Positions 36,228 to 53,909 of a DNA stretch of 53,909 nt are shown here, piece by piece. Under the pieces are notes generated by a model. That model worked only from the letters and a program-made list of their open reading frames with translations, ran no database searches and was not told the origin of the DNA. Positions within the stretch are counted from its first letter, which is position 1. Every line of letters starts with the position of its first letter. The position numbers were made by a program, and so were the translations under genes. Source of the stretch: Raillietiella orientalis (Eukaryota); the NCBI GenBank assembly GCA_036172245.1, contig JAYWIR010000161.1:1-53909 (forward strand), written 5' to 3'.

Positions 36228-38200
36228 ATGCCACCTGGGTGCTCCGGGACGTTTATTGAAAAAACTTTTTATTCGTCATTACAGTACGTGGTACAAGGGC
36301 CCACTAACGGATACTTAATGAAGGACCTGCAGGGACACCGGGATGCAGCCCGGAGTGACTCTCCTCGGCAGTGGAAGGGGATGGGGGGAAAAACAAAAAG
36401 AAAAACAAATCAGTAAAAGAAAAACAGTTTTTGGAGGGAAGAGAGGGGATCACAGTCCACTGGGAAGAGAATCCATCCTTAGTAGGATACCCTCGAGGTC
36501 CTCCTTCAATCTTCCCAGCTGGGGCCATCCAATAGCTCTCCGCAGGAAGCGAACAGCATATGGGATGACGTCTATTACGGTGGAATCTTCATCTACGTCA
36601 TCACTCCAGACCGCCACGATACCACGAATGCAGCAAAGTGCTGCCAGGGCTGCGGTTGGACTGAGGGCGTCCCGCACGAAGAGAAGATTGTACACGCCTC
36701 TGGGGTTGCCACTATCCGGTATCCCAAGGGCTTTTCTAAGACATTCTTAAAAAAATCCGGACGGTAGGGCAATCAACTAAGAGGTGGGGGAGCGATTACC
36801 TCCCCCCACACCTAGCACACGCAAAATTTACACTTCCCCGCGTCCAGTGGAAGCGGCGCGCGTTGCACGGTAGACCCCAATGCAGCCACAGAAGCGCCGA
36901 CTCTTGCCACTTCAGGGGAAGAATCCTGGAACAAATTAAAACCGGGGGCCACTTCAGGTCATCCGACCGGATGCCGAGCAGCTCGCCTTATTTTCTTAAT
37001 CCACGCGGCTGGACACTAGGCGTCGTAGCATCTGTCAGCTCTCCCATGGTCCAGCCGCCCATCGTCTTTCTGCCTGCGATCCGGCAGGAGACTTGTCACC
37101 TCGGCTTCCGGCTGTTGTAAAGCGCCCTACGGAGGAAGGGCATCGCCGTAGCAAGGGGTGTCCCTTCTGCCCACGTGCAACTCGCTGGAAATTCAAGAAT
37201 TTCACGCAGAGTGCTGCGGGCGTAGAAGACGACTCGCAGGCAGTTCCACGTCTCGTGTTTCCTCTCATGTATCTTCGCCGGAGCAGGTCGCATCCTCGCA
37301 TCTTCCGGCCGGAGCACAGAAGATAAGACGCTAGTCCTTGCGTCCTGGAGACACGGCTGGGACAAGTTCCTGGAGAAGGCGAGCCGGTACGCACCAAGGG
37401 GTGCTCCACAACTTCGCTGCGATGGCCAAGGTGCGCCATCGCAGCTGGATTACCAAGAGATCCAGCATCAGGAGAACAAAACCACCGTCCCGACGCGGAG
37501 CGCATAAGTCCTTCAGAGGCACTTTAGGCCTCTTCTTGCCACAGAGGGCTATACGGAGTAGGTCCTTTGTCCTCTTCTTCAACTGGGGGGCAACGGGGCA
37601 AACAAAAAGTAGGGGGCGAAGGATGGGAGCCGCGGATGCGTTTCATACCGCGGCCCGTTCCGGCAAGAGGAACTTGCCCTCCAGCAACGGGCCGACCGCC
37701 GACTCCACTTATTGGAGACGACCTGATTAGGCTTCCGACGTGCAGAAGTCCCCCAACGGCACGCCAAGGTATTTCAGGTACGTGGCCGCGGGGATCCCCA
37801 AGCGGATCCACTCAGGACGTCCAGCCCACGTCGCACCAACCGCCACCACCGACGACTTTGCCTTGTTCACCCTTCTTCCCGTCCCGCGGCTTAGCAGATC
37901 GAAGAAATCCTCGACTGCGGCTGCCAGGGTTGACATGGGTAATAACAGCAGAAGATCGTCAGCGTACGCTGCCACGGCAGGCGAGCCGGGGCACGAGCTC
38001 GGCAAGGGGGCCAAAGTCGCACTATACGCTCTCAGCACCAACTCGAAGTAGATGCTAAAGAGCAGGGGACTGAGGCTGTCGCCCTGCCGTATCCTACGCC
38101 GCACCAACACGCCGAAGGAAACGTTGATGAGCGCGTCGCACCAGCTGGAGCGCAGAAACTGATAATGAGGCCGGGAAGCCCAAGAGTTCCAGGAGTTCCA
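36228..38200 (-). mobile_element. 5'-truncated LINE (RT core to 3' terminus); last element of the array
   Basis: ORF 37727..38110 (IRQGDSLSPLLF, AYADD, KYLG); ORF 36450..36695; terminal motif at 36228-36257. Confidence 0.9.
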
Positions 38201-40249
38201 GAATTTTTTTCAATATTTTTTAGTGCACAACCACCACTGAGATTTTTCTTTATTCGGGTATAGCAAGTTATCGTTTGGGTTCCGCCATTCAAAATTTCGA
38301 GTCGTGTTTCAAATTGGCCCGGCCGGCAGTCTGTTTTGAGGCAAACACTGTTATCGCTTGTGATTCCTTCAGTCTGTGACTGAAGTGTTTCCAACAAGCG
38401 TAGTGGTAATTAGGAAAAAAGACTATGTTTCAGCACTCCAGACAATTGAAACAGGGTTTGTGGAAGAACAGGTTGTAAATTCCATAGAAATGTCGCTCAA
38501 AGTGGACAGTCCATTTTGAGTCCAGCGCAACCATTTTTCGTGAGCAAGTCGTGATGAACCCGTGCAGCGTAAAGGCAACGCGAATGCAAACAGTTGGAGT
38601 GCAGACGACAGCGCAACGTCCCCATTTCAAATGGATGGGATAGACACGAAAGAAAGGGGTGGTGTCCCACGCATGAGGCAAGATTAGAGGTGCCAGGAAT
38701 AGATCCATTTCTTTACAGACGTTTGATTCTTGTGTTGAGCTTGCATTCCAGTTTCACGAACCCTTGAAAGCTTGCGGGAAGAATGTTGGTAAACGCTTGC
38801 CCTAATTTACGACCAAATGCAGATGGATGGGTCACGCCAGTCGGTCTTCATAAAAATGGCTGATTACGGGACGTCTTTGCAGTGGCATCCGCGGGAGCAG
38901 CAAGGTCGAGTTCAGCAACATTCGAATCGAAATCGACAGTTCGAATCATGAGGAGAGCGGTCGTAACACCTCCTCTCCGACGACTTCGGTCTGCAATGGC
39001 TCACCGCTAGACAGAATCCGATTGACCACGTTCTGTATGGCGAAGACGAGCATCCAGAAGTACCAGGACATTCAAGCCCTACTCTCGGATCAGCCTCTCT
39101 TGCAGTTCACCTTGATGATGGAAAACAGCTTCAGGGCTGCGCTGCTCTGCACGCCCGAGCGATTGGTGATCGTTTCGATTTGCCGATACGTTTGTCGGTC
39201 ACCAGAAGCTGATGGAGTTGACATTGCAGGACGCCGACATCCGCAGGGTCGACGAATGGCATCGGTTGAAACGCACGATCCACCTATTTCCGAATGTCTT
39301 TAAACACTCTCTAGCTTGAAATTAGGTATCTGCATAAACCATGCGTCCACCGATACCTCTGTTAATTTTCACCATCTTCCAAGTTTATATCAGCCTTCAG
39401 TTAACTTTGCTTAAGGAGCGAAAAGCAATGGTCTATGCTTTCTGCTGATACTTCAGGTGTCTCCGTTCCCAAATCATCTTCTAACGCCTCTCTTCAGTAT
39501 TTGATTCCCTGTTTGGTCGCTGCTCATTAGCTCGTTCTCCTTGCAAGCATTAAATCCTGAGGGGTCACTCATACTTTCCCCTAGCAGGGTCAGGTAATAT
39601 ATTGTGCACAATATGGGTCAAACGATTTGCACAACAATATTTTGGCTAATCTGAAAGGCTGATTTTCTGCGGTAGGTCGAGATGTTTACTTAAACTTTCC
39701 TTCAACTAATAAAGATGTCTATTAGAATGGATTTGCAATCGTGCCACAGAGCACTAAATAGCACATGTACCTAAAATGTATAGTTTTTATTCTTCCATAC
39801 CCAACTGAAGTTCATAAACCTTGCTAATATTCTTGGAATTGCCAAGTGAATTTTTCTTATTTGCTTTTCTCTTAAGCGTCCGTGCATTGAGTCAAAGTTT
39901 AACATAGAAAATGATTTACTTCATGATAGAAATAGTTTTTAAAGTTGGGAACTATTCTTACCGCAGTTGGAAATTCATGCGACTAAAATCCTTCACATAA
40001 AGTGGCTGTAGAATGCAAATTCTGCAACACCATTTTCCTTGAACTATGCAACTGTAGTAGGTGACCGAAGTGTGGAAAACAAACCTTCACAGATGCCTAA
40101 GAGATTTAGCTTGGTTTGAGAATTGCCACTTTAATCTTTGATAACTTCTGAACAAGCCATTCAGAATATATGTTGCATACATATGAAATCCTGCACATGG
40201 TCAGCAAACTATTATGCATCTGCATGTGCTGCAGCAGTTCCCAAACACA

Positions 40250-40870
40250 AGAGAAAGCATGCATCACCCATTCTTACACCAAGCATTTGGAAGTTGTATC
40301 AATGAAAAACATGTTCCAGCAGAGACTTACAATTCTGCAATCGAATATCCAGGTTTTGGAGTATGTGCAGCCTCCCACAAACCGAGCTTGCAAAACTGGG
40401 CTTTAGGAACTCAGAAGACATGGAATGCTTCTTTGGAAAACACATCACGTCTCAAACACTGAGAGCTTCGTGTACTCCTTTCAATCCATAGAGTGCAACT
40501 TTACCTGAAGGCCACCACATTTAGGTCGTGGCAACGCCAATTGTGAGAAACTGATTAAGGGGGCAGCATGTGATCTCACACTGCTAGACACCAAACGGGT
40601 ACATGTTCCCAGGAAACCGTCAACTCCTGCTTGGAAACACCAAAGATTGCTCGATTATTACAACTGGATCCCTCCTATGCAGCTGAAAATTGCATACAAT
40701 CCCCATTTTCCGATTCCTGGAGGCGGGAAACATCATAATCTGGCAGCACACTAGGCAACCAATCAACGTAGTGCACCCAAGAGCACTTCCCCATTGCAAA
40801 CGTTGCAGCTGCCTGGATTTTGGAAGAGTGAACAGTAAATGCAACTGTTTTGTTTAGGATAGGTCATCAG
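40250..40870 (-). pseudogene. Possible heavily decayed PPR gene remnant
   Basis: Scattered PPR-like peptides in different frames (LQRLQWGSAL, RAIFGV..TVSW, FCKLGLWEAA, NAWCKNG); weak. Confidence 0.3.
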
Positions 40871-41879
40871 CATACTCAGGACAGCAAAGACGTGCTAATT
40901 CTCAGTGGATTCGAAAAACAAAAGAAAAGTGAGTTGGCGTCGGAGAGAAGCATTCTGCCAAAATAGCATTCAAATGGTTAAGCTGAAAGGCAGGAGTGCA
41001 GAAGTGCAGTTTCCTCTGCAGCATTCATCTTAGGTTTTGTTTCTCGATGCCTCGGACTCGAAAATTCTAAGAGATGATGAAACGGAACTTTTCATGAAAA
41101 CAGTTGCTCAATAACGCGGAGCTGCCGTCGCCCTCCGCGGATGTGAGCAGAGTTTTCGGATCCAAAGGAAAATCCTCATTTAGGAATCTCAAGGTGACGA
41201 TTTCAGAAAAATTCACACAAAAGTTAGCTTGAAAAGAAAATCTGTTGGATACATAGGTTCAGATATTCAAGATGACTTTGAAACATGCTCAAAGTAACAA
41301 CACCATTTAATAACAAGATTTTCAAAAATGTACTCACTCTGATGAGCTGCACGAAGCTTCTTCACTCGAGCTGACTTCTTACACTGAACATCATGCAATT
41401 CAAAAATTGAATTCTGAATTCAAAAAAAGAAAAAGCTGTTTGTCGATGATTGTTTCGCGTACGCTTGAGCACGTGCAGCATTTGAATAGTGAAGGGTAGT
41501 TTGGATTCCGAAATTTTTCGTTTGTCTTCGGAAGGACAGCAATGATATCGATAAGAGGTTACCCGTTTACTGGATAGTCACTATATGTAATGCATGTGAT
41601 GATTTCTTGACTTGGCAATCCTGTTTTCTCCTGTAGCCACTTGAAGGCAGGTGAGTCCATTCAAAAGAGCAAGTGATTCTCCAGTGTTCTGAGATGCACT
41701 GCTCCTGAATGGCTTGGGAAGAAACACAATAGGCATGTGGTGCCACAATTTGGGACAGTAATCAGCACATCATAGCTAAAGCACTTTGGAAAGTTGATTT
41801 GCATCTATTATGCAGTGGATGGGTCTACTTTAGTTCATGGATTTCACACTGGTGACACAGCAAGAAAAAAGAGCATTTC

Positions 41880-42330
41880 TTGCATGTGAAAGGTTTGGAA
41901 CCCTCCAACTGCACAGCATTTAGGAAGCAAAATATTCTCAGTGGTGAGAAACCAATAATAACTCGCAAAGTTATCGGTCTGAACAGAATTGCTGCGATGA
42001 AGAGGAGAGGTTGCTACATGAATGCCAGTTTTTGTGACCAGTGTTCTGGATTCCAAGGAAAGAGAAACGGCAGAAGATGGAAGGCATAGCTCCCAGGGGG
42101 TTCTGTGAACTGGAACACTATGATCTTGGCTATGCTGAAGATGCAGGAGCATCAAAGATGGCCAACATACGTTCAGGCAGGAAAAGGGAGAAGTTTTCAG
42201 GCTAAGGATAGGAATGTTGAAATGATTGGCGATTAGCTGATATCTGAGAAACGATTAGGAATGAACAAAAGCATTGGGCTGGAACTGCAAATAATGCTTT
42301 GATTTCCACTGTACATGTAGCATGTGCTTC
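41880..42330 (+). pseudogene. Decayed PLS-class PPR gene remnant
   Basis: KGLEPSN (~41889); VNWNTMI then, after a frameshift, GYAED (42105-42142); ANNALIS (~42288). Confidence 0.5.
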
Positions 42331-45149
42331 AGGGGTAATAGGAAAGATGTGAGTCTCGGTGTCATCAAGCTCACCCTCAAGAAGAAAGCTAGAATTCTTG
42401 TAGCAAGCTGCGAGTCATTTTAGCAATGTGGAAACAGAAGGTGAGCAGTCTTTCAATGTGGGTAGACAAGTATAGGCCTACCAGCAACCTGGAAATGGTA
42501 GGACAGCAGAGTCTGTTAATAAGCTTCATACATGGCTCCAAAATTGGCAGGAGAATAGGCGGCCTGCCCACAGATCTCTCCATGCATGCAAGCAGGTCTT
42601 AAGGTGGTTTTGTTGCAATTCCATTCAAAAGTTTTTAGGTGTAGTTGCAAAATAGTGCTGATGCAGCATACTTCAAAGCAATCACACATCCTAGCCCTCT
42701 ATGCATAGGTTAATCAATCTTTCACCTGGCCAAGTATCATGTCCTGATTAGGGCAAGCACTGCTACACTGACTGAATGTTACAAATGCAAGGTTAAAGCA
42801 TCCTTCGCAAGCAGAGGAAGCACCTATTCTTAGACATCAGATTTTACTGTTGCAGTCCAAAGAAAAAAGTTATTTTGTTATGATCATGGATGAACTGAGT
42901 AAGTTGGAAAAGTAAGTTTCTTTGCTCTTATGGGCCCATTTAGCAGCACAGAGTGCTTGCAGACCGAAATGTTTGCTGGAAAACAATCAGCAGGAAAGAA
43001 GAATCAGGGAAGAAAAAAACTCAAGCATTGAAGGAAACGGCACTCTTTTGTAATCGTTTCCTGGCTTTGTGTTTCTACGTGCTGCAGAAGAGGAAATGCT
43101 TCCTTGTTGCATGGAATCCCTTGTTTCCCAGCATCCCAAGAAAGGGGGTGCCTCTTATGCAGGGAAGAATCGTTCAGGAGAACGGAGGGAGGAGTGCAAA
43201 TCACTGCACAGTTGGGTCCTTAGCATTCCTTGCAGTATGCTGGCGAGGTCCTCTGCATGACATTCCAAGTGGAAGCACCTCGAGCCCACCTGTAAGATCC
43301 CGATGTGGAAATGAGTGACTGCTGCTGTGGAGTCCAAAGCAAGGGGGAAGGTTGCCCGGAGAGGAAGAGAGTGCACTAGAAGGTGCACGAATTATTCGAT
43401 TTTTCAGCATGTGGCGCCGTTTGGTTTGGCACTCTCCTGCATCCTTTATAGCAAGGCTGATGTCCTGGAGGCAACATAGGCAGTTCCAAGGAACAGTCTC
43501 TTTTTGCTAGGATTCCTTCCCTAATTCCTCTACCCGCAGAATGTATGCCCAATTCAATCACGCACGAACTTGTTTCAAACTGATTCCTGGTGTTGAGATA
43601 TTCGTTCCGACGTGCTCGGCTGCTGCTCTCTCTGCACCACTGTTCCATGATTTGAATTTCACATCCATGGAAGCTTCGTGAAATAATCTGCTTGCAGGCC
43701 CTGCCGAGCATGAATTCTTGAAAAGCCAAGCGTGGAATAGGGAGAAGGTTTGGTTTCGTGCTTACGATGGAAAGCAGCCTTTCTGCGTATAAGAGAGCCT
43801 AAAACTCGATTCATTTTCATGTACATGTGCAGTATTTTTTGAAAAAGTACGTCCACTGATAAAACACTTCGCATGATTCCAATTCTTTTTCGTACAATAG
43901 TCGTTACCTAGAAACTAATAGTCATCTATACGCGAACACTTCAATGCTAGACAGTGGATCTTTAGAAGGGAGTGGGCATTGACGAGTCCACTGGGACGCA
44001 CCTTCAGAATCATAAGAAGTGTTCAGAAAACTTTCTGGAAGGTACTCCGTTTCGGATAGCGGAGTATCGAAATGCACCAACGGCCATGATGGAGACATTG
44101 GTTTCAGTCGACGCGACTCCAATGAGCCACGTTTGGGAAATATGATCCATTCCAGGAGTCTGCATGATCCCTAGCCGCGTGGCTGAGCCACACCAAGTAT
44201 GAGAAATGCCAAGTTGTCATTGTGATACTACAAATAAGAAAGATTCCACGATGCCATGGGCATCACTGGAAGAACGACGAATTCGGAAAGACGATTGCTG
44301 AATGTGCAGTGTCGGCTTTGTGGTGGCTTTGAAGATTCTCGTGGGAACAACGGTTGAACAACGCGGCATGCAAGACGAGCCGTTTGTGGCAGGAAAGTGT
44401 GGAAAGCAGAGGCAACAAATCGTAAAACTGACGATAGGAGAACGTGAGAAGCCTCTTGTGCATTCGTAGGAGACCTCAGATTGCACAAGAACACCGACAT
44501 GAGTGGAAGAACCGAGGAATGTCTTCAGTGGAGAAGACGTAGGGAAATCATTGCGAAAGGATCATTGAAGAGTGGTGAAGAGTGGAAAGGTGCAATTTGA
44601 AGGTAAGCTGTTGTTGGCAAAAGACTTGGTGAGATCAAACTCCGCGCTGTCTGTTCCACCTCGAAATGCACATCTTGAAGCGCACGGGAAGAGGCCGAAG
44701 AGCGGGAAGAGCGGTAGAGGGCGGTTGCGCTTTCCGGTGGAAGTGGGCGTAGGGCTGCACGGTTGTGTTTCGGTTTGGAAGAAATGCTGTGGCTCAAAGT
44801 GTGTATGGTGGAATGGTCAGGTGGCAAGGCATGTAGGCATTCGAGGAGCATGTGATCGATGGGAAAAGGAAAATGCTGTTAGCAGTGAGCACTTTACGGT
44901 AAAGGAATTAATTTTTTGCTTTTTTGGAAATTGCTGCAAGAATCGAGAAAAAGAAAAGTGGTGGAACGCTTGTGATTTCTTTTGCAGTGATGGGGAGCAA
45001 AGAAAGGAGTTGAAAGGAGTTCACTTGCAATGCTGCTGTTTTTTTTTTTTCACTCATGAGAAATCGAGAATCGTCAAGAAGCAATGGAAGTTCGACCTAC
45101 TAGAGTTTTGAGAACTGCATTTGTCCCGTTTGTTCCTCCTTGCACGTTT

Positions 45150-46600
45150 ACTGTGACGGCGATTGTTCACAGGAATGCTCATGAATGAGAAAAGGGTGTG
45201 TTGATGTTCTGATTCTTGTGGTGTGATGACTTGGGATGTTATGAGTTTTAGCAGGAAAGGTTTTGGAACTGTTGGACTTGCACTGCTGACAAAGTGTTGA
45301 GGTTTGCAACGTTTCTGTTCATGCCATGCTTTTTGACAGCAGGGCCTGCTGAGAGTAGAGTTGACTTTTTCAAATTGTAGGTGCAATCTAAGTTTGTGAG
45401 CACTCAGCTGTGCAGGTGGTTGACAACGTGTTGTTTTGTGAAGTTACCATGCAAATGTAACCTCATGCAGGTATCTCTCCGATATGAGTTATATCATTGA
45501 CAAGAAGTTGATATGCAAAGATACCCGTATGTGAAAGCATCTCACAATAAGTCGTTCCTGGGGATGTTGTTTTCTCTTGGCGGTAAAGTTAGTTACACTA
45601 ATTTCTGTTTGGCAGTACACCAAGGCATTTTGTGAGTGCCCCAGTCAGGTTTAAGGCCGATTGCAGATTGTTTGGATATCTGGTTATAATCACGAGATCA
45701 TCTGCACATGCTAAGACCTTGGAATTGGCAATGTTTTTCATGACGCCCTGTCATAGTGGTTGCATCCCCAAATGAAAAGATCCCAGATAAGGGGTGGGCA
45801 TGTTCGGGAGTGCCAATCACCTGGGTAAGTCCATCCAAGGTTGGGCTTGCACCCATGGTTCGAAAGTGTGTGTGAATGGTATGGATGACATCGTTCAATG
45901 TATCTATGGCTAACTGGCATGTTTGCACATCTTTCGGTTGTTATTGCAAATCGCGGAATTTTCCCTTGAAACTAGTTTGAAATGGAATCTTGCTGTTGAG
46001 TTCTAGAGGAGGAAATTTTGAGATGAGAATCATCACCTGTACATTGCATTGTGATGTAAGGAGATAATCTGCTTGTGGGAAGAGGAGTAGTTCTTGCAGA
46101 AGTGGGAGTTGGTGCAGTTTGTTGACTCGTAGCAAGTGGCATGCTTGCTCTCTGGCGGATGAGGAATGTGAATTTGTGAGTATGTTCTTGGAGAGATCCC
46201 ATTATTTGAGAGATTTGACGAAGGAACTACAGAATGGTACTCTTGTATGTCTAAAGGGCTAAAGAAGATGTCCTGTTTGAGATTTGGTTGCCAAGGTTCT
46301 TACTTGATTTGGTGCTTTTGATTAGCATCTCTCTCATCTGATCCCATCCACAGTCGACTGTGCTCCCAGGATGGAGTGTTTCAGTCTAGGAGTTTCATGT
46401 TGTGGATTCTGGGAATGCTAACCCTTCTCGGATAAGATGCGAGTAACAGGTAATCCTTTGCTCCGAGCTTGTGCAATAAGTTTATCATGTATCTGAACAT
46501 CATTGTTTTATTATGACATCTGCCTGGAAATACCAAAGCTTATGGGGTTCTGCAAGGTGCTTCAGAGTTTATAGTCCTTCATGAAGGCATAGATAAAGGG
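45150..46600 (+). pseudogene. Possible decayed PPR gene remnant
   Basis: RRLFTGM..VMTWDVMSFSRKGFGTVGLALL (45157-45295); LLRACA and AW..LMGFCK near 46460-46557. Confidence 0.35.
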
Positions 46601-47219
46601 ATTCAAACAATTTGTTGCAGAGTTTTTTTACTTCAGATTCTAGAGTTCATTTCATTTTTTTGGCACATGGCAATTTCTTAACCTTAGTTTTTAAAGGAAT
46701 AACGTGTGACCCCATTAAATTTGAAATATGTATTTGTAAAATCAGGTAGAACGTGGTGACAAAAAATTCATGCAAAGTTCAGTGCAACGCAAAATATTTG
46801 TGTATTTTCATGAGACAGTAGTGAATGGTTAATATTTTGAGGTCAGTAGAATGGTTATTTTCCTGGTTTTCCATTTTATGGTCCCCAAAATGTTTCAGTG
46901 CATTTTCATAAAGTAAAATATGGGAAAGAAATAAAATACCAAGCCAATTTAGATTGAATTCTTCGAAGATTTGGGAAAGTGCGAGATTCTCTTATTGTGG
47001 AGAGTTTGTTCTTTCTGGAATAGGAAGGCCCTGCAAAGTGGAAAGTAGGGTTATGGATAGTATTTAAACAGCAAATACAAATAGATAAGAGGAAAACACA
47101 ATAAGGTTAACACAATGGGAAACTGAATTGCTTATTTGACTCTACAGACTGGGCACTAATGTGTACTGTGATGAAATGTGAAAAAGAGTGGTGATGTTTT
47201 GTGATTTACTTTTGTCATT

Positions 47220-47890
47220 CTAGTATTCATCTTGAGGTAATCTAAAATGCAGCGAGTTTATTATTATGAAAACTGACTGCAATGTTTTGTAGATGTCAAA
47301 GCAAAGAAAGTTCTTGGAAATTCTAATATGGAATTTCTGATATGGAGACTGCCTTTTCAGAGGCTCGGCTGCAGGCTGTATCTCCTCATGCTGCCTCAGT
47401 CTCACGGCCCTTGGAAGCCTACGTTCAAATTTTCTGATAGCCTCGTATAGTTTCGATCTAATGTCCGCTACACGATCTGTTCCTAGTGTTGGGGTTATCA
47501 TTTCAATGGGTTTTAGCGAAAGTTCTTTCGGCACCTTCGAGCAAAAGGCCTCCCACTCGGGTGAGAAGTCCTCTTTCGACTCGATGGCCTGTTGAGACAT
47601 ATAAGGTGAGAGGCATAGTGCTGATTTAGGGTACACGTTGAGCATGAAGGATCCGAGTCGTCCTAGGGTTGAATCGGCTTCGGAATCATTGAAATTTGTA
47701 CGAGCCTGGCCAGTCAAGTATCTGGCTCCTCTGTGGTAAAATTTTGCATTAAGCATAATGCCTGCTTACGCCTCTCCCAAGAAGGCGTTAAATTTTCCTT
47801 GTTGAAATTGATAAGAGTAGTAACGGAGTTTTCCAGACTTGCATCTTTCAGTTTGGGCGTTTCTGCTGTGGTATTCGTTTGGAGTGGAAT
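47220..47890 (-). pseudogene. Probable C-terminal part of the Rep gene (highly derived, possibly SF3-helicase-derived)
   Basis: ORF 47220..47756 (178 aa) extends upstream past one TAA and is in the same frame as the Rep ATG at 48836; only faint similarity to the Rep helicase region. Confidence 0.45.
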
Positions 47891-48065
47891 GTCATGCATT
47901 GAAGTGTACTGTGATATTGTTGCATGAAAAAATTCCAACATGCAACTATTTACTCATTGCTGATAGTTGTTTAAATTATTCTCATGGCAATTATGATGAT
48001 AGAAAGTCTGCAGTTATTCAATGTTTGAAGCTAAATCAAATTCTTTGGATCTTTAACATGATGTG

Positions 48066-48836
48066 TTATGAATCTTGATGTATCATTTCAACTTTTTTGA
48101 GGTTTGTGACAGATATTGCACTGAAAGTTGACTGTGCATAAATTTCCATACAGCAAAGGCAAGATTTTTTCTTTTTGTATTTGCTAATCGGTATGCTTGG
48201 AATCAGAAGTTCCGAAATATGTTGCCTACCCATCTCACTGAACTGCAAATTGTTTTCTTGAAAAGCATTTGTTAGTATCCTGGAGTTAATTTGGGGTGAG
48301 GGCCAAGTCATCATTGTGAATGTGGTGAGGGGGTTGGGGTGTGCTCTGCTTCGTGTAAGGCGGAAGCATTCTTTTACAAAATTTATATTTTTACTATAAA
48401 ATTTGGTGTGGTTGTTGAGTATGAAGAGTTCGTCGGCGCCATCTTTTATGAGTTGGAGTATCTAGCGGATAGATGATTTGCGATTTGGCTTACCACGTCT
48501 TGGTAGGCCAAAAATTGGCTCGTTGGATTCGTGTAGTTTCCCGAATATCCAAGCTTGCTTGTCTTCTTTAGTGAAGTACCGTAAGCTTCTTTGCGGACTG
48601 CCTCTAGCTTTTTCAAGATGACTTTTTTGGAAAGTTTTTCTTTTTAATCCTGGTAGTGTTCGAGGTTCTTTTAGCTGGAAGAATCCTTGAAGGTGAGGTG
48701 TTCCGGTGTTTCCGATCTCTTTGCCTATGCATGCAAAGAAGCAGTCAAGTCGGCACTAGTTGTTGAGTTCTTTTAAGTCGTCTTCGGTGAAGTTGCACAG
48801 GGTAAAGCACCAGTTGAAGAAGAGTGCGTAAGGCAT
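48066..48836 (-). pseudogene. rep: CRESS-DNA virus-like Rep (HUH rolling-circle endonuclease) with two in-frame TAG stops
   Basis: Manual translation from ATG 48836: MPYALFFNWCFTLCNFTEDDLKELNN*CRLDCFFACIGKEIGNTGTPHLQGFFQLKEPRTLPGLKRKTFQKSHLEKARGSPQRSLRYFTKED. Motif I FTLCN, motif II PHLQG, HLEKARG, motif III YFTKE; stops at codons 27 and 125. Confidence 0.93.
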
Positions 48837-48885
48837 TCTGAAATTCACTGTAAGTGCGACTTGTTTGTGGTTGTCTGCGTGTTGG

Positions 48886-48893
48886 TATTTATA
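48886..48893 (-). promoter_or_regulatory. TATA box for rep (TATAAATA)
   Basis: Lies between the origin stem-loop and the rep ATG, about 50 nt upstream of the ATG. Confidence 0.65.
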
Positions 48894-48912
48894 CTGCGTA
48901 ACTGCGCAGAAG

Positions 48913-48947
48913 ATGCAATCTGGTCAATAGTATTACCCAGATTGCAT
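48913..48947 (+). other. Rolling-circle replication origin: stem-loop with the TAGTATTAC nonanucleotide
   Basis: ATGCAATCTGG-TCAATAGTATTAC-CCAGATTGCAT: perfect 11-bp stem, 13-nt loop, nonamer at 48928-48936. Confidence 0.93.
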
Positions 48948-48958
48948 GCAGCTGACAA

Positions 48959-48989
48959 GGCAAAACCTTGGGAAAACCTTGGCAAAACC
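48959..48989 (+). repeat. Iteron-like 11-bp direct repeats beside the origin
   Basis: GGCAAAACCTT GGGAAAACCTT GGCAAAACC. Confidence 0.6.
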
Positions 48990-49908
48990 CGGCTTCTTCA
49001 GCGAGCATCATAACTCCCAAGCAGCCCTTGCTGACCGGACCGTATGGATATTCGGTCGAGGAGGCCTGGGTCAAGGGGAGGATTTCCTCTTTCAGCGCCT
49101 TTCGGATGATTTGGTCGAGCGATTGCCAGAGGGCTTTCCGCTTCGAGCCCATTCGGAGGGCGTGCACAAAGGCTAGGAACACAAACGTCTTTAAGGCGTC
49201 CAGCTTTTGCCATGGCGCAAGGGGACAGTCCATCACTTTGGCCACGCTGCCAGTAATGTCTTCGAGCGCATGGCTGTGCATGGCATCGAAGCCTACGGGC
49301 TTTCCTTCGTAACTATATGTACCGCTATCATTGAGCACGGGGATGGGTTCCCCTGTTATGGTGAATTGCTCACGCCCAAGAGTCTTGGGAGTTCGGGGAT
49401 CGTAGTGCAGGGACGAGCACTTCTTGGCATTGATGGTGAGGCCCAGGCGAATAGCCATGTAGCGTGCCGCATTCAACGCCGCTTGTAGTGTTTGTGCGTC
49501 CTCAGCGAGGATGACGAGGTCATCCGCGTAAGCGAGCACCTTGATTCTGGGCACGTGGTGTTTGATCCCTTGGCACAGTGGCTCGATTGCGATATCAAAA
49601 AGCAGTCCGGATAGCGGGCATCCCGGTTTCACGCCCCTACATATGTGTATTGGAGGTGAGAGACCGGCAGACGTTACGATCTGTGTGATGTTGTCTGTGT
49701 GCATTTCGCACACGAGTTCCACGAAACGATCACCGGCACCCGCACATTGGAGGGAACACAAAAGCTGTGAATGGGGGATGGATGCAAATGCATCCAGCCA
49801 GGCAGCGCACACGGTTCGATGGTGGCGCTTGCTGTATTCGATCAAGTGCGATAGTATGAAATTGTGTTCGAGGACACCATCGAAAGGGAGGAAGCCCTTT
49901 TGGTGTGG
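48990..49908 (-). mobile_element. NeSL/Utopia-like (R2 superfamily) retrotransposon RT core and thumb, 3'-truncated
   Basis: PHQKGFLPFDGVLEHNF, AAWLD-AFASIPH, RGVKPGCPLSGLLF, LAYADD, LAPWQKLDALKTF (ORF 48889..49845). Confidence 0.85.
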
Positions 49909-50034
49909 GCACGGGGATGGGTTCCCCTGTTATGTTGAATTGCTCACACCCAAGAGTCTTGGGAGTTCGGGGATCGTAGTGCAGGGACGAGCACTTCTTG
50001 GCATTGATGGTGAGGCCCAGGCGAATAGCCATGT
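49909..50034 (-). repeat. 126-bp direct duplication of 49335-49460 at the inversion junction
   Basis: Two mismatches in 126 bp by direct reading. Confidence 0.9.
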
Positions 50035-50937
50035 CTTGGGCATGTTCCCCAGACGAGTGCACCCTCCATCCCATTGCCTGATCCCTTGCACAATCAGGAA
50101 TGGCAGATAGTGACAAGTCGTCGAAAACGTGCCCCTAATGCCCAGGGAGCTCTGGTCTGTGGAGCTAGGCATCCGCCCAGACGTATCACCTCCTCTAGTG
50201 AACCTGAATCTCCACGCCTTCCTACCCCTGTCCCTGGCTCACGATTCGCCGCCCTGGAAGAGGAGAACATTCGTGAACTGGCAGTTTCACCCGAAAGCAT
50301 TGCTGTGCCTGCACGTCCCTCAACGTCCCCCATCCGAAGACGCGCTCGTGGCAACCAGCGGGAAACTCGGAGAGAGCGCTTGGATTCCCTTGGAGAGACT
50401 GCAAGGCTTCTTCACGACATTGGGTCTCATCCAACAACAACGGACAATTGGGGCCTTGCGATACGGGCGCTGAACACTTCATACAGTGCAATTCGGAATG
50501 CCCTGGGCTTACGCCCTTTCGCCATTCCCATGAACAGTGTGCGACCACTGAGTCTGTCTCCCCGCTCTCTACAGCGGCTATATAATCGAAACCGTCGACG
50601 AGCAGTACGGCTCATCCTCGACGGTCCTCCGGCTGAATGCCAAGTGGACAGGCGAACTGCCCATGCGTACTTCACAGACCTGTTTACAGCTCGGCCTGGG
50701 TTTCAGCCTTGAAGCTGGGACCCTGGGCTAGCGTCCACTCATGAACCCATGGACCTTTCCCCGTTCGATCCGAGGGAAATCGACAGCTGTTTACGTTTAT
50801 GTGAGGATACTGCGCCGGGGGCAGACGGCATACCGTACTCTGCCTTCCGCCGGCTTGACCCTGAATGCCGTTTCCTCACGGCAATTTTCAATATCTGCCT
50901 TGCCCACCGCCGGGTTCCCCCGGAGTGGAAAGAGTCA
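50035..50937 (+). mobile_element. Inverted N-terminal part of the same NeSL/Utopia-like ORF
   Basis: LQRLYNRNRRRAVRLILDG, TAPGADGIPY, FLTAIFNICL..RRVPPEWKES (ORFs 50074..50712 and 50749..50991). Confidence 0.85.
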
Positions 50938-53505
50938 CATTTTTCCACTCGGCATTTTTCCACTTGTTCAAGAAGCATCCATTCTCCGTGAGAATTGAAG
51001 AACCGTTATGGATCATTGCACAATCCTACAATTTCCTGGTTTCAGAGGATGATTGAGAAGAGTGCGACATTTCATTAGGTTGGCGCACTTTCGCCTTTGT
51101 GGTCTTTTCATGGCAACCAGTGACGGAATTGCAAGGAAAACGTTTTGCTTCTATCACATTTCTCGTGTTCCAAGGTTACATCTTTTAAGGGTTTGTAATC
51201 GATTCGAAATGAGGAGATTTCATCAAAGCATTTTTCCGATTCTTCAAGAAGCATCCATTTGCAGTGAGAAACAAACAACCGTCATGGATCATTGGACAGC
51301 CTTACAATTTCGTCGTTTCCAACGACGATAAAGAAGAGTCCGACCTTTCATCAGGGTTGGGTGCTTTGGACTCTGCGTTGTTTTCATGGCAACCAGTGTC
51401 GCAATTAGAAAGGTAATGTTTTCATTCAATCGGATTTCTTATGTGTTCAAAGGTTATATTTCATGCTGGTTTCTAATGAATCCGAAATGAGGAGATTTTA
51501 CCATTGCACATTTGCTCATCTTTAAGAAGCATCGATTTGCCGTGAGTGGCAAACTACCAACATGGAACACTGCACAAGCTTACAATTTCTGGTTTCAGGG
51601 GATGATTAACAATATTACAACATTTCATCAGGGTGGGGTACTGTGGACTCTTTCTTGTTCTCAATGCAACCAGTGTCGTAATTCGAAACAAAAAGTTTTC
51701 CGTTGAACTGATTTAATCTGTGTTTAAAAGTTACATCTTTTCATGGTATCTGATCGATTTGAAATGAGGAGATTTTAGCAAAGTATTTTTCCGTTTCTTC
51801 AAGAAGCATCCATTCTCCTTGAGAGGTAAACAACCGTTATGCATCATTGCACAAATTTACAATTTCCTGGTTTCCAAGGATAATTAAGAAGAGTTTGAAA
51901 TTTGGTCAGGGCGGATCACTTACAAATCTGCGTTCTCATGGGTACTAGTGCCAGAATTACAGTGAAAAAATTTTTTTTTGGATCTGATTTAGTATATTTC
52001 CCGAATTTACATCTTTTGCTGGTTTCTCATCAACTAAGAAGAGAAGATTTCACCGTTGCACATTTGTTTTTCTATAAGAAGAATCCATTAGCAGCGAGGG
52101 GCAAACTACCGCCATGGATCATTGCACAACCTTACAATTTCATGCATTCAGAGGATGATTCAGAAGAGTGAGAAATTTCATTAGGTCGGCGGACTTTCGC
52201 CTCTGTGTTGTTTTCATGGCAAGCAGTGTCGCAATTAGAAAGGAAATGTTCTCATTCAATCGGATTTCTTATGTGTTCAAAGGTTATGTTTCATACTCGT
52301 TTCTAATCAATCGGAAATGAAGAGATTTCACCATTGAGCTTTTTCTCTTTTTTAAGAAGCATCGATTTTCGTTGAGTGGCAAACTACCAACATGGAACAC
52401 TGCACAAGCTTCCAATTTCTTGGATTCAGGGGATTATTAACAATATTACGACATTTCATCACGGTGGGATACTTCGGACTCTTTGTTGTTCTCAATGCAA
52501 CAAGTATCGTAATTGGAAACAAAACGTTTTCCTTGGAATTGATTTAATCTATGTTTAAAAGTTACGTCTTTTCATGGTTTCTGATCCATTCGAAATGAGG
52601 AGATTTCAGCAAAGTATTTTTCAGCATCTTCAAGAAGCATCCATTCACCGTGAGAGGTAAACAACCGTTATGGATCATTGCACACCCTTACATTTTCCTT
52701 GTTTCCAAGAATAATTAAGAAGAGTCCGACATTTCGTCAGGGCGGATAGCTTACGAATTTGTGTTCTCATGGGTACTAGTGCCAGAATTACAGTGGGAAA
52801 TTTTTCCTTCGATCTGATTTATTACATTTCCTGAATTTACATCTTTTGCTGGTTTCTAATCAACTAAAAAGAGAAGATTTCACCATTGCACATTTGCTTC
52901 TCTACAAGAAGAATCCATTTGCAGCGAGAGGCAAACTACCGCCATGCATCATTGCACAACCTAACAATTTCCTCGTTTCAGAGGATGATTCAGTAGAGTG
53001 CGAAATTTCATTAGGTCGGCGCACTTTCGCCTCTGTGTTGTTTTCATGGCAACTAGTAACGGAATTGGAAGGAAAATGTTTTGCTTCTATCAGATTTCTC
53101 ATGTGTTTTGAAGTAACATTTTTTAAGGGTTTGAAGTCGATTTGCAATGAGGAGATTTCACCAAAGCATTTGTCTGCTTCTTCCAGAAGCATCCATTTGC
53201 AGTGAGAAACAAACAACCCTTATGGATCATTGGACAGCCTTACAGTTTCGTGGTTTCCAACGATGATAAAGAAGAATCCTACACTTAATCAGGGTTGGGT
53301 GCTTTGGACTCTGCGTTGTTTTCATGGCAACCAGTGTCGCAATTAGAAAGGAAATGTTCTCATTCAAACGGATTTCTTATGTGTTCAAAGTTATATTTCA
53401 TGCTGGTTTCTAATTAATCGGAAATGACGAGATTTCACCATTGCACATTTGCTCTTCTTTAAGAAGCATCGATTTGCGTTGAGCTGCAAACTACCAACAT
53501 TGAAC
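50938..53505. repeat. Satellite array, ~277-bp monomer, about 9.3 copies, with higher-order structure
   Basis: Anchor AAGAAGCATC (or a close variant) recurs at 50970, 51246, 51524, 51801, 52076, 52354, 52632, 52906, 53184 and 53461 (spacing 274-278). Confidence 0.95.
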
Positions 53506-53909
53506 TGGTTCCGTATTCAAAAAGCAATATTTGCTATGTCCTTTTGAAGAAATAAGCTTTGGGCTACTAATGGAAGGCTTGTACGAATCGGTGCTAATGA
53601 ATATTGTTAGGGAAGTTTGCTTCATAAATTATCATCCACGAAAAAATGTGTTTTTGAATGTTTGCATCTCGTAGATTCCTTTATTAAAAAGTACTTAATG
53701 CCCCTATCCATAGAAATTCAAAGTTGCACCATAAAAAAGAATAATGTGTTACCTACAATGTATTAAGTGGAATGTATATCAGCAATTTTAAATGGAAAAT
53801 AAATTCTATTGCACAAGTATTAGAGAATGGAAAATTGAACGAAATGAAGTTTGAATACAAATCGCAGGTTGCTTTCTTGTAAAGTTCGATAAGTGATTGA
53901 TGAAATCCG

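Follow-up and report, generated by a model that had tools for sequence, protein, structure and literature searches.

A probable endogenous fragment of an ambisense CRESS DNA virus that retains a stem-loop origin beside a truncated rep

Endogenous elements that retain a viral origin are described in plants. The GRD elements of Nicotiana each consist, according to the account given in PMC5014472, of a degenerate, truncated rep and an intergenic fragment with the virion-strand origin, and the yam element EGV1, as presented in the same account, has kept its hairpin as well as a TATA box and has no gene for a coat protein. Both are geminivirus derived and form repeat arrays in plant genomes, according to that account (PMC5014472). 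Rep-only fossils of CRESS viruses are reported to be common in invertebrates (PMC6069186) and in crustaceans (PMC4231630, PMC4573495), the rep-derived fragments of the crustacean survey averaging ~128 aa. The portions of these surveys that deal with the elements describe no retained origin (PMC6069186, PMC4231630, PMC4573495), and the screens were protein based, so that origins may never have been sought. Remnants of Rep reduced to the endonuclease are also reported from avipoxviruses (PMC10193959). A further comparison is provided by Replitrons, whose hosts are given as algae, non-seed plants, and protists (PMC10288648, Craig 2023). As characterized in PMC10288648, they have the signatures SUTU in motif I and GYxxK in motif III, short terminal direct repeats, and multi-copy families of 2-4 kb, and their founding member has no Pfam match.

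The locus presented here lies in a stretch of 53,909 nt, which was analysed whole and is called the window in the following. Very probably, it is an inert endogenous fragment (~670 nt), made up of an origin and a truncated rep (Table 1), and its source was a CRESS DNA virus with an ambisense layout whose lineage could not be placed. The association of a truncated rep with an origin, and the lack of a coat protein gene, are shared with GRD and EGV1 as described in PMC5014472. In contrast with these, the window has a Rep of the Viral_Rep type, the nonamer TAGTATTAC, probably an animal host, and a single copy of the element. The invertebrate and crustacean elements, as the surveys portray them, resemble it in being rep fragments of unclassified, long-branch lineages in which cap is often undetectable (PMC6069186, PMC4231630, PMC4573495). 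The Replitron protein, according to PMC10288648, is like the window Rep a Y1 HUH (HUQ) Rep that has a helical region next to it and lacks a helicase, whereas the motifs of the window Rep are of the CRESS type, its match to Viral_Rep is strong, and its origin has a viral nonamer. An incomplete search of the literature returned no description of a retained origin in an endogenous element of an animal.

Table 1. Features of the viral piece and of its immediate surroundings (positions in the window)
Feature	Position	Strand	Evidence
CpG-retaining island with most of a 181-codon frame	47330..47880	-	GC 0.46, CpG o/e 0.81
AT-rich, CpG-poor spacer, host-like, left of the Rep breakpoint	47900..48320		GC 0.33, CpG o/e 0.17
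Rep pseudogene, truncated, with endonuclease (HUH, Viral_Rep), oligomerisation region, and linker; no helicase	48324..48836	-	Pfam, profile, alignment
TATA-like box TATAAATA	48886..48893 (48893-48886)	-	Rep ATG (48836) lies 50 nt downstream
Origin stem-loop, nonamer in loop	48913..48947	+	hairpin scan; z -2.45 for 48860-49000
Three 11-nt direct repeats, iteron-like	48959..48989	+	period 11, 2.8 copies; only 3' of hairpin
Internal fragment of R2-like non-LTR retrotransposon RT	48993..49929	-	RVT_1 E 1.6e-17; R2 chains
Rest of rearranged retroelement block	49906..50930		duplication; inverted + strand piece

An earlier note on this DNA, made from the sequence alone, had reported a Rep on the strand opposite the nonamer, with the motifs WCFTLCN / GTPHLQG / HLEKARG / YFTKE and two TAG stops, and all of this is borne out: the frame opens at an ATG at 48836, the motifs are present, and the stops interrupt it at codons 27 and 125 (48758-48756 and 48464-48462). 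When both stops are replaced by X, the frame matches Viral_Rep in Pfam with an E value of 1.2e-14. The protein has motifs I-III of a Y1 HUH Rep endonuclease, and the 12 columns that are invariant across 17 aligned Reps include the catalytic positions of motifs II and III. In an alignment with 16 relatives, the window Rep deviates at two of eight nearly invariant columns, which fits decay. A profile built from 103 full-length relatives matches 48815-48324 only, corresponding to profile positions 23-172 of 293. Homology stops near 48324, a few positions before Walker A, and beyond this point the frame continues into AT-rich, CpG-poor DNA without homology. The viral piece has a GC content of 0.43 and a CpG o/e of 0.79, and beyond 48324 both fall to the values of the spacer (Table 1), as a breakpoint would have it. 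With a profile of the SF3 helicase, for which 74 relatives were used, no score exceeds 0 bits in any of the window's six frames. A helicase hidden by a frameshift or by splicing was considered and rejected, since a tblastn search with 163 proteins has a best off-target match of E 0.004 and the profile is also blank. Viral homology extends over ~48324-48992. The replicon with an intact origin that the note had drawn over 47220-48989 (1770 nt) is not what the window holds, the viral piece being less than half as long and its Rep being truncated and devoid of a helicase.

The origin itself agrees with its first description. A hairpin scan of the window recovers a stem of 11 bp without mismatch and a loop of 13 nt, the last part of the loop being TAGTATTAC (nonamer at 48928-48936), on what is presumed to be the virion strand. 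Only this one, among the four perfect hairpins of the window with a stem of at least 11 bp, contains the nonamer. There are four matches to NANTATTAC in the window, two of them without stems and inside the satellite at 50963-53495. In CRESS viruses, a stem-loop beside rep carries an NANTATTAC nonamer at its tip; the window has this arrangement, and 68 of 79 related viral loci show the form that is seen here. The nonamer core alone has a chance expectation of 0.38 in the window, against ~2e-7 (a rough analytic figure) for a nonamer with a stem within 200 nt of the Rep start. The origin and the Rep sequence are real. The direct repeats said to flank the hairpin also exist, but on one side of it and not on both; by analogy with known CRESS origins, they are presumed to be Rep-binding sites. 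The TATA-like box, which may act as a promoter, is accompanied by a small 6-bp hairpin (48894-48909), and the edge of the main hairpin is 77 nt from the Rep ATG, in agreement with the note on both the box and the distance. Rfam has no match in 38000-53909. A perfect origin next to a Rep with two stops has a P of ~0.06 at the divergence that the stops imply, within a range of ~0 to 0.72. Because two stops permit so wide a range, selection on the origin is not significant, and the perfection of the origin is a weak point against a fossil.

A Rep on the strand opposite the nonamer is a feature of the genus Cyclovirus. The window has this layout, together with TAGTATTAC at the apex of the stem-loop and circovirus-type motifs, and shares all three with cycloviruses and with unclassified ambisense CRESS viruses such as the loci L001, L002, L007, and L043; the tree, which includes almost no named references, shows no supported grouping (see following). 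Of the 79 related loci, 56 carry the nonamer hairpin on the Rep strand and 12 carry it on the other strand, while in 11 no such hairpin was detected. The layout is therefore a common minority form, nothing special, and it is not diagnostic of cycloviruses because 12 of these 79 mostly unclassified loci have it too. The same loci inform on the capsid gene. When the 12 opposite-strand loci are taken together with L001 and L002 (n = 14), an ORF of at least 150 aa on the capsid side starts 86-1153 nt after the hairpin in 13 genomes. These ORFs mostly have an Arg-rich start and are capsid-like by inspection. Viral DNA in the window reaches at most 53 nt past the hairpin, which is below the minimum of 86 nt. 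That no capsid gene is visible, as had been remarked, is correct, since none was found by a six-frame Pfam search or by comparison with the viral loci, but its absence is uninformative because the viral DNA is cut before such a gene would begin.

The relatives of the Rep at E <= 0.001 number 4646 proteins, and the best 150 of them are 30-51% identical to it. Viral_Rep was present in all of the top 30 relatives scanned, and RNA_helicase in 17 of them; a Walker A pattern occurs in 101 of the 121 relatives with at least 250 aa (among 163 proteins). The closest relatives are ordinary environmental CRESS Reps. The best relatives of solved structure are Rep endonucleases (eight sequences, E 6e-12 to 3e-6), which we take, from the families behind the PDB codes, to be of circovirus and nanovirus type. 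The tree of the N-terminal half was built with FastTree from 167 of 245 rows and 152 columns, the 78 other rows having been dropped as duplicates or because no motif I or Walker A could be recognised in them. In this tree, which includes almost no named references, the branch of the window Rep is long (rank 156 of 167), and its sister support is 0.75. Of ten matches looked up, one has an informative name, the Rep of Red mite associated cyclovirus 1, and its identity (45% over ~93 residues) makes it no closer than the unnamed matches. The lineage of the parent virus is unplaced, its Rep being apparently of the circovirus/nanovirus type.

On the capsid side of the origin, where the note had placed a NeSL-like fragment, lies a piece of RT that is R2-like by its best solved relatives (E 1e-20 to 1e-25 for R2 chains, ~1e-5 for L1 chains). 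RT homology runs to ~49000, so that the junction with the viral repeats falls at 48990-49000; the fragment is co-oriented with Rep, and the 3' part of the element is absent at this junction. Further away, a segment of 129 nt (49332-49460) is copied at 49906-50034 with three mismatches. The inverted piece on the + strand, whose identity is weak (no match in one search, E 0.29 to R2 in another), probably codes for the part of the element that precedes the RT core. There is no other copy of the R2-like family of 48993-50930 within the window.

To the left, ~420 nt of host-like DNA separate Rep from the CpG-retaining island and its 181-codon open frame (47223-47765, - strand). The spacer has no family match at E < 0.1 in six frames, and no CRESS homology was found in 47220-48320 with the profile, with a six-frame Pfam search, or with the viral loci. 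The frame extends upstream past one stop (47223-47885) and is co-oriented with Rep and with the RT core. It has no homologue in Pfam, PHROGs, Atlas, viral and metagenome contigs, or the 81 loci, and protein searches found none among 346 candidates and none among 52. Its best sequence match in the PDB, the Rad50 coiled coil (E 0.007), was judged spurious. A fold search of its single-sequence model gave no match at E <= 0.001, which is meaningless because the pLDDT of this model is 36. That it is a piece of an RNA-virus nucleoprotein, as a motif might suggest, is speculative. A role as a capsid or second viral gene was rejected, there being no homologue and nothing that ties the frame to the virus. 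The longer frame may be a second foreign insert, either a captured viral fragment or a transposon fragment.

The viral piece is set among a LINE nest of ~38 kb, host-like AT-rich DNA, and a satellite. The nest (1-38150) is GC rich and consists of L1-like copies in both orientations, mostly 64-81% mutually identical; unlike the adjoining AT-rich DNA, it shows no CpG depletion (o/e 0.95). The satellite (50963-53495) has a unit of 278 bp in 9.2 copies with ~69% matches, and contig depth over it reaches 305 in a public sequencing run. Between the regions on the left and on the right of the viral piece, there is no target-site duplication of at least 11 nt, and the only one of 10 nt is off the boundary. 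Among the matches listed for the one public run, 47409-47808, 47894-48052, and 48153-48324 are matched at 98-100% identity; depth is 2-4, falling to zero in the bins of 48634-50950, and neither junction is bridged. This gap was not accepted as absence of the viral and RT block, given the low depth, the other holes, and the fact that no contig joins across. The stops, the truncation, and the repeat-rich flanks make chromosomal integration likely. The plant host that the earlier note had thought apparent is not supported. In the AT-rich flank, CpG is depleted (o/e 0.61) and CHG is not (1.0), and when the copies in four repeat pairs are compared, C-T differences are similar in CHG (72/1087) and CHH (154/2451) and only slightly more frequent in CG (99/1264). 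This is a weak test, and it gives no plant-type signal in the window; the host is probably an animal.

From the established biology of CRESS viruses, the Rep of the parent virus would bind the 11-nt repeats and nick the + strand in the nonamer loop by its catalytic Tyr, its C-terminal SF3 helicase would unwind the DNA, and the capsid gene would extend from the origin towards the right. The fragment would then correspond to the intergenic origin and the first ~57% of rep. Its left cut would fall immediately in front of the helicase and its right cut ahead of the point where the capsid gene starts; it would have been fused to the rearranged R2-like RT piece and have decayed since. Most likely, a break in a repeat-rich region took up the fragment by non-homologous capture, and a deletion or a rearrangement involving the neighbouring LINE came later. 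Since DNA upstream of the TATA box is included, we infer that viral DNA, or else a read-through transcript, was captured, and not an ordinary rep mRNA. Having no intact Rep, the fragment is inert in cis and cannot replicate itself. The fossil of a circo-like virus, one of the two readings first offered, is thus upheld by the Viral_Rep match, the stops, and the truncation. As such, it is the trace of a past infection, in this host, with a CRESS lineage that could not be placed. The origin, the repeats, the promoter, and the N-terminal Rep region of the parent virus are kept together in it, and its junction with a rearranged R2-like RT makes it a usable case for how pieces of DNA viruses enter genomes.

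This junction admits another route to the same fossil, one that overlaps the preceding explanation and differs from it in the manner of capture only. The R2-like RT would have copied a Rep-sense viral template with the origin in it, switched to truncated RNA of its own, and inserted the resulting mosaic as a whole in a single event, possibly with the island that holds most of the 181-codon frame. The RT piece does adjoin the viral repeats within ~10 nt and in the orientation of Rep, and the lack of its normal 3' part at the junction, along with its own duplication and inversion, suits a jump. The enzyme used in the in-vitro study of template jumping is reportedly R2 derived. Jumps of a non-LTR RT across RNA or DNA templates in vitro are on record in PMC8594491. 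Against this route, no target-site duplication surrounds the composite, a template of Rep sense, not the virion strand, would be required, and a later deletion would yield an identical junction. Moreover, if the 129-nt duplication dates the block, the two stops in Rep have a P of ~0.03, a hint that the viral piece predates the RT block or had been damaged beforehand. Capture by the RT is possible but doubtful.

A more distant reading, and an improbable one, makes the locus a decayed rolling-circle element derived from a CRESS virus, without capsid and helicase, Replitron-like but independent, or else a non-autonomous origin mobilised in trans. The origin, the repeats, and the TATA box are intact, and an endonuclease with an oligomerisation region and no helicase parallels the domain plan of Replitrons as outlined in PMC10288648; transposons derived from ssDNA viruses are also reported (PMC3198968). 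In its strongest form, for which we see little chance, the locus would belong to an undescribed family of animal rolling-circle elements that lost capsid and helicase and kept the viral nonamer origin and repeats, the origin staying intact because it is recognised in trans by the Rep of intact copies or of infecting viruses. If true, this would be a second case, and one in an animal, of a virus giving rise to a transposon in the way of Replitrons. However, the Rep is broken and its helicase half gone, and the frame has no stop at the helicase boundary and runs on into AT-rich, CpG-poor, non-homologous DNA. The Replitron signatures are absent, motif I reading FTL and motif III having no Gly before the Tyr. 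There is no second copy of the viral piece in the 54-kb window, and no terminal repeats were found: the two ends tested share no 7-mer, although both are breakpoints. Nor did a close helicase-less relative stand out among the 163 proteins or the 81 loci. The capsid-less rolling-circle element or Replitron, second of the readings first offered, is accordingly not supported. Least probable of all is an assembly chimera between a contaminating or infecting virus and host repeats. In its favour, the junctions do adjoin repeats, and among the matches listed the sole public run found neither covers nor bridges the viral piece. Against it, a replicating virus would not be expected to carry two stops, to be truncated, or to deviate at conserved positions, and the piece lies inside a long repeat-rich contig whose adjacent flank this run covers at 98-100% identity.

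For the endogenous viral fragment, a source lineage was also sought by likeness of the origin. The circular genomes L001 and L002 have the same stem core (9 bp of stem) and the same layout as the window origin. They were rejected as the source lineage, their Reps scoring 50 and 40 bits, versus 89 for the best loci, with an endonuclease ~32% identical. A longer version of the stem pattern shared with them has no match in metagenome contigs, and the likeness is probably due to chance or to distant kinship. The Reps of these two genomes (L001:1376-2419 and L002:148-1134) have a long insertion after motif III, and in both a frame of ~160 codons overlaps the Rep start. A separate cluster of CRESS-type Reps (P0006) has 29 members, one of which is on a contig of 721 kb and is possibly integrated in a large genome.
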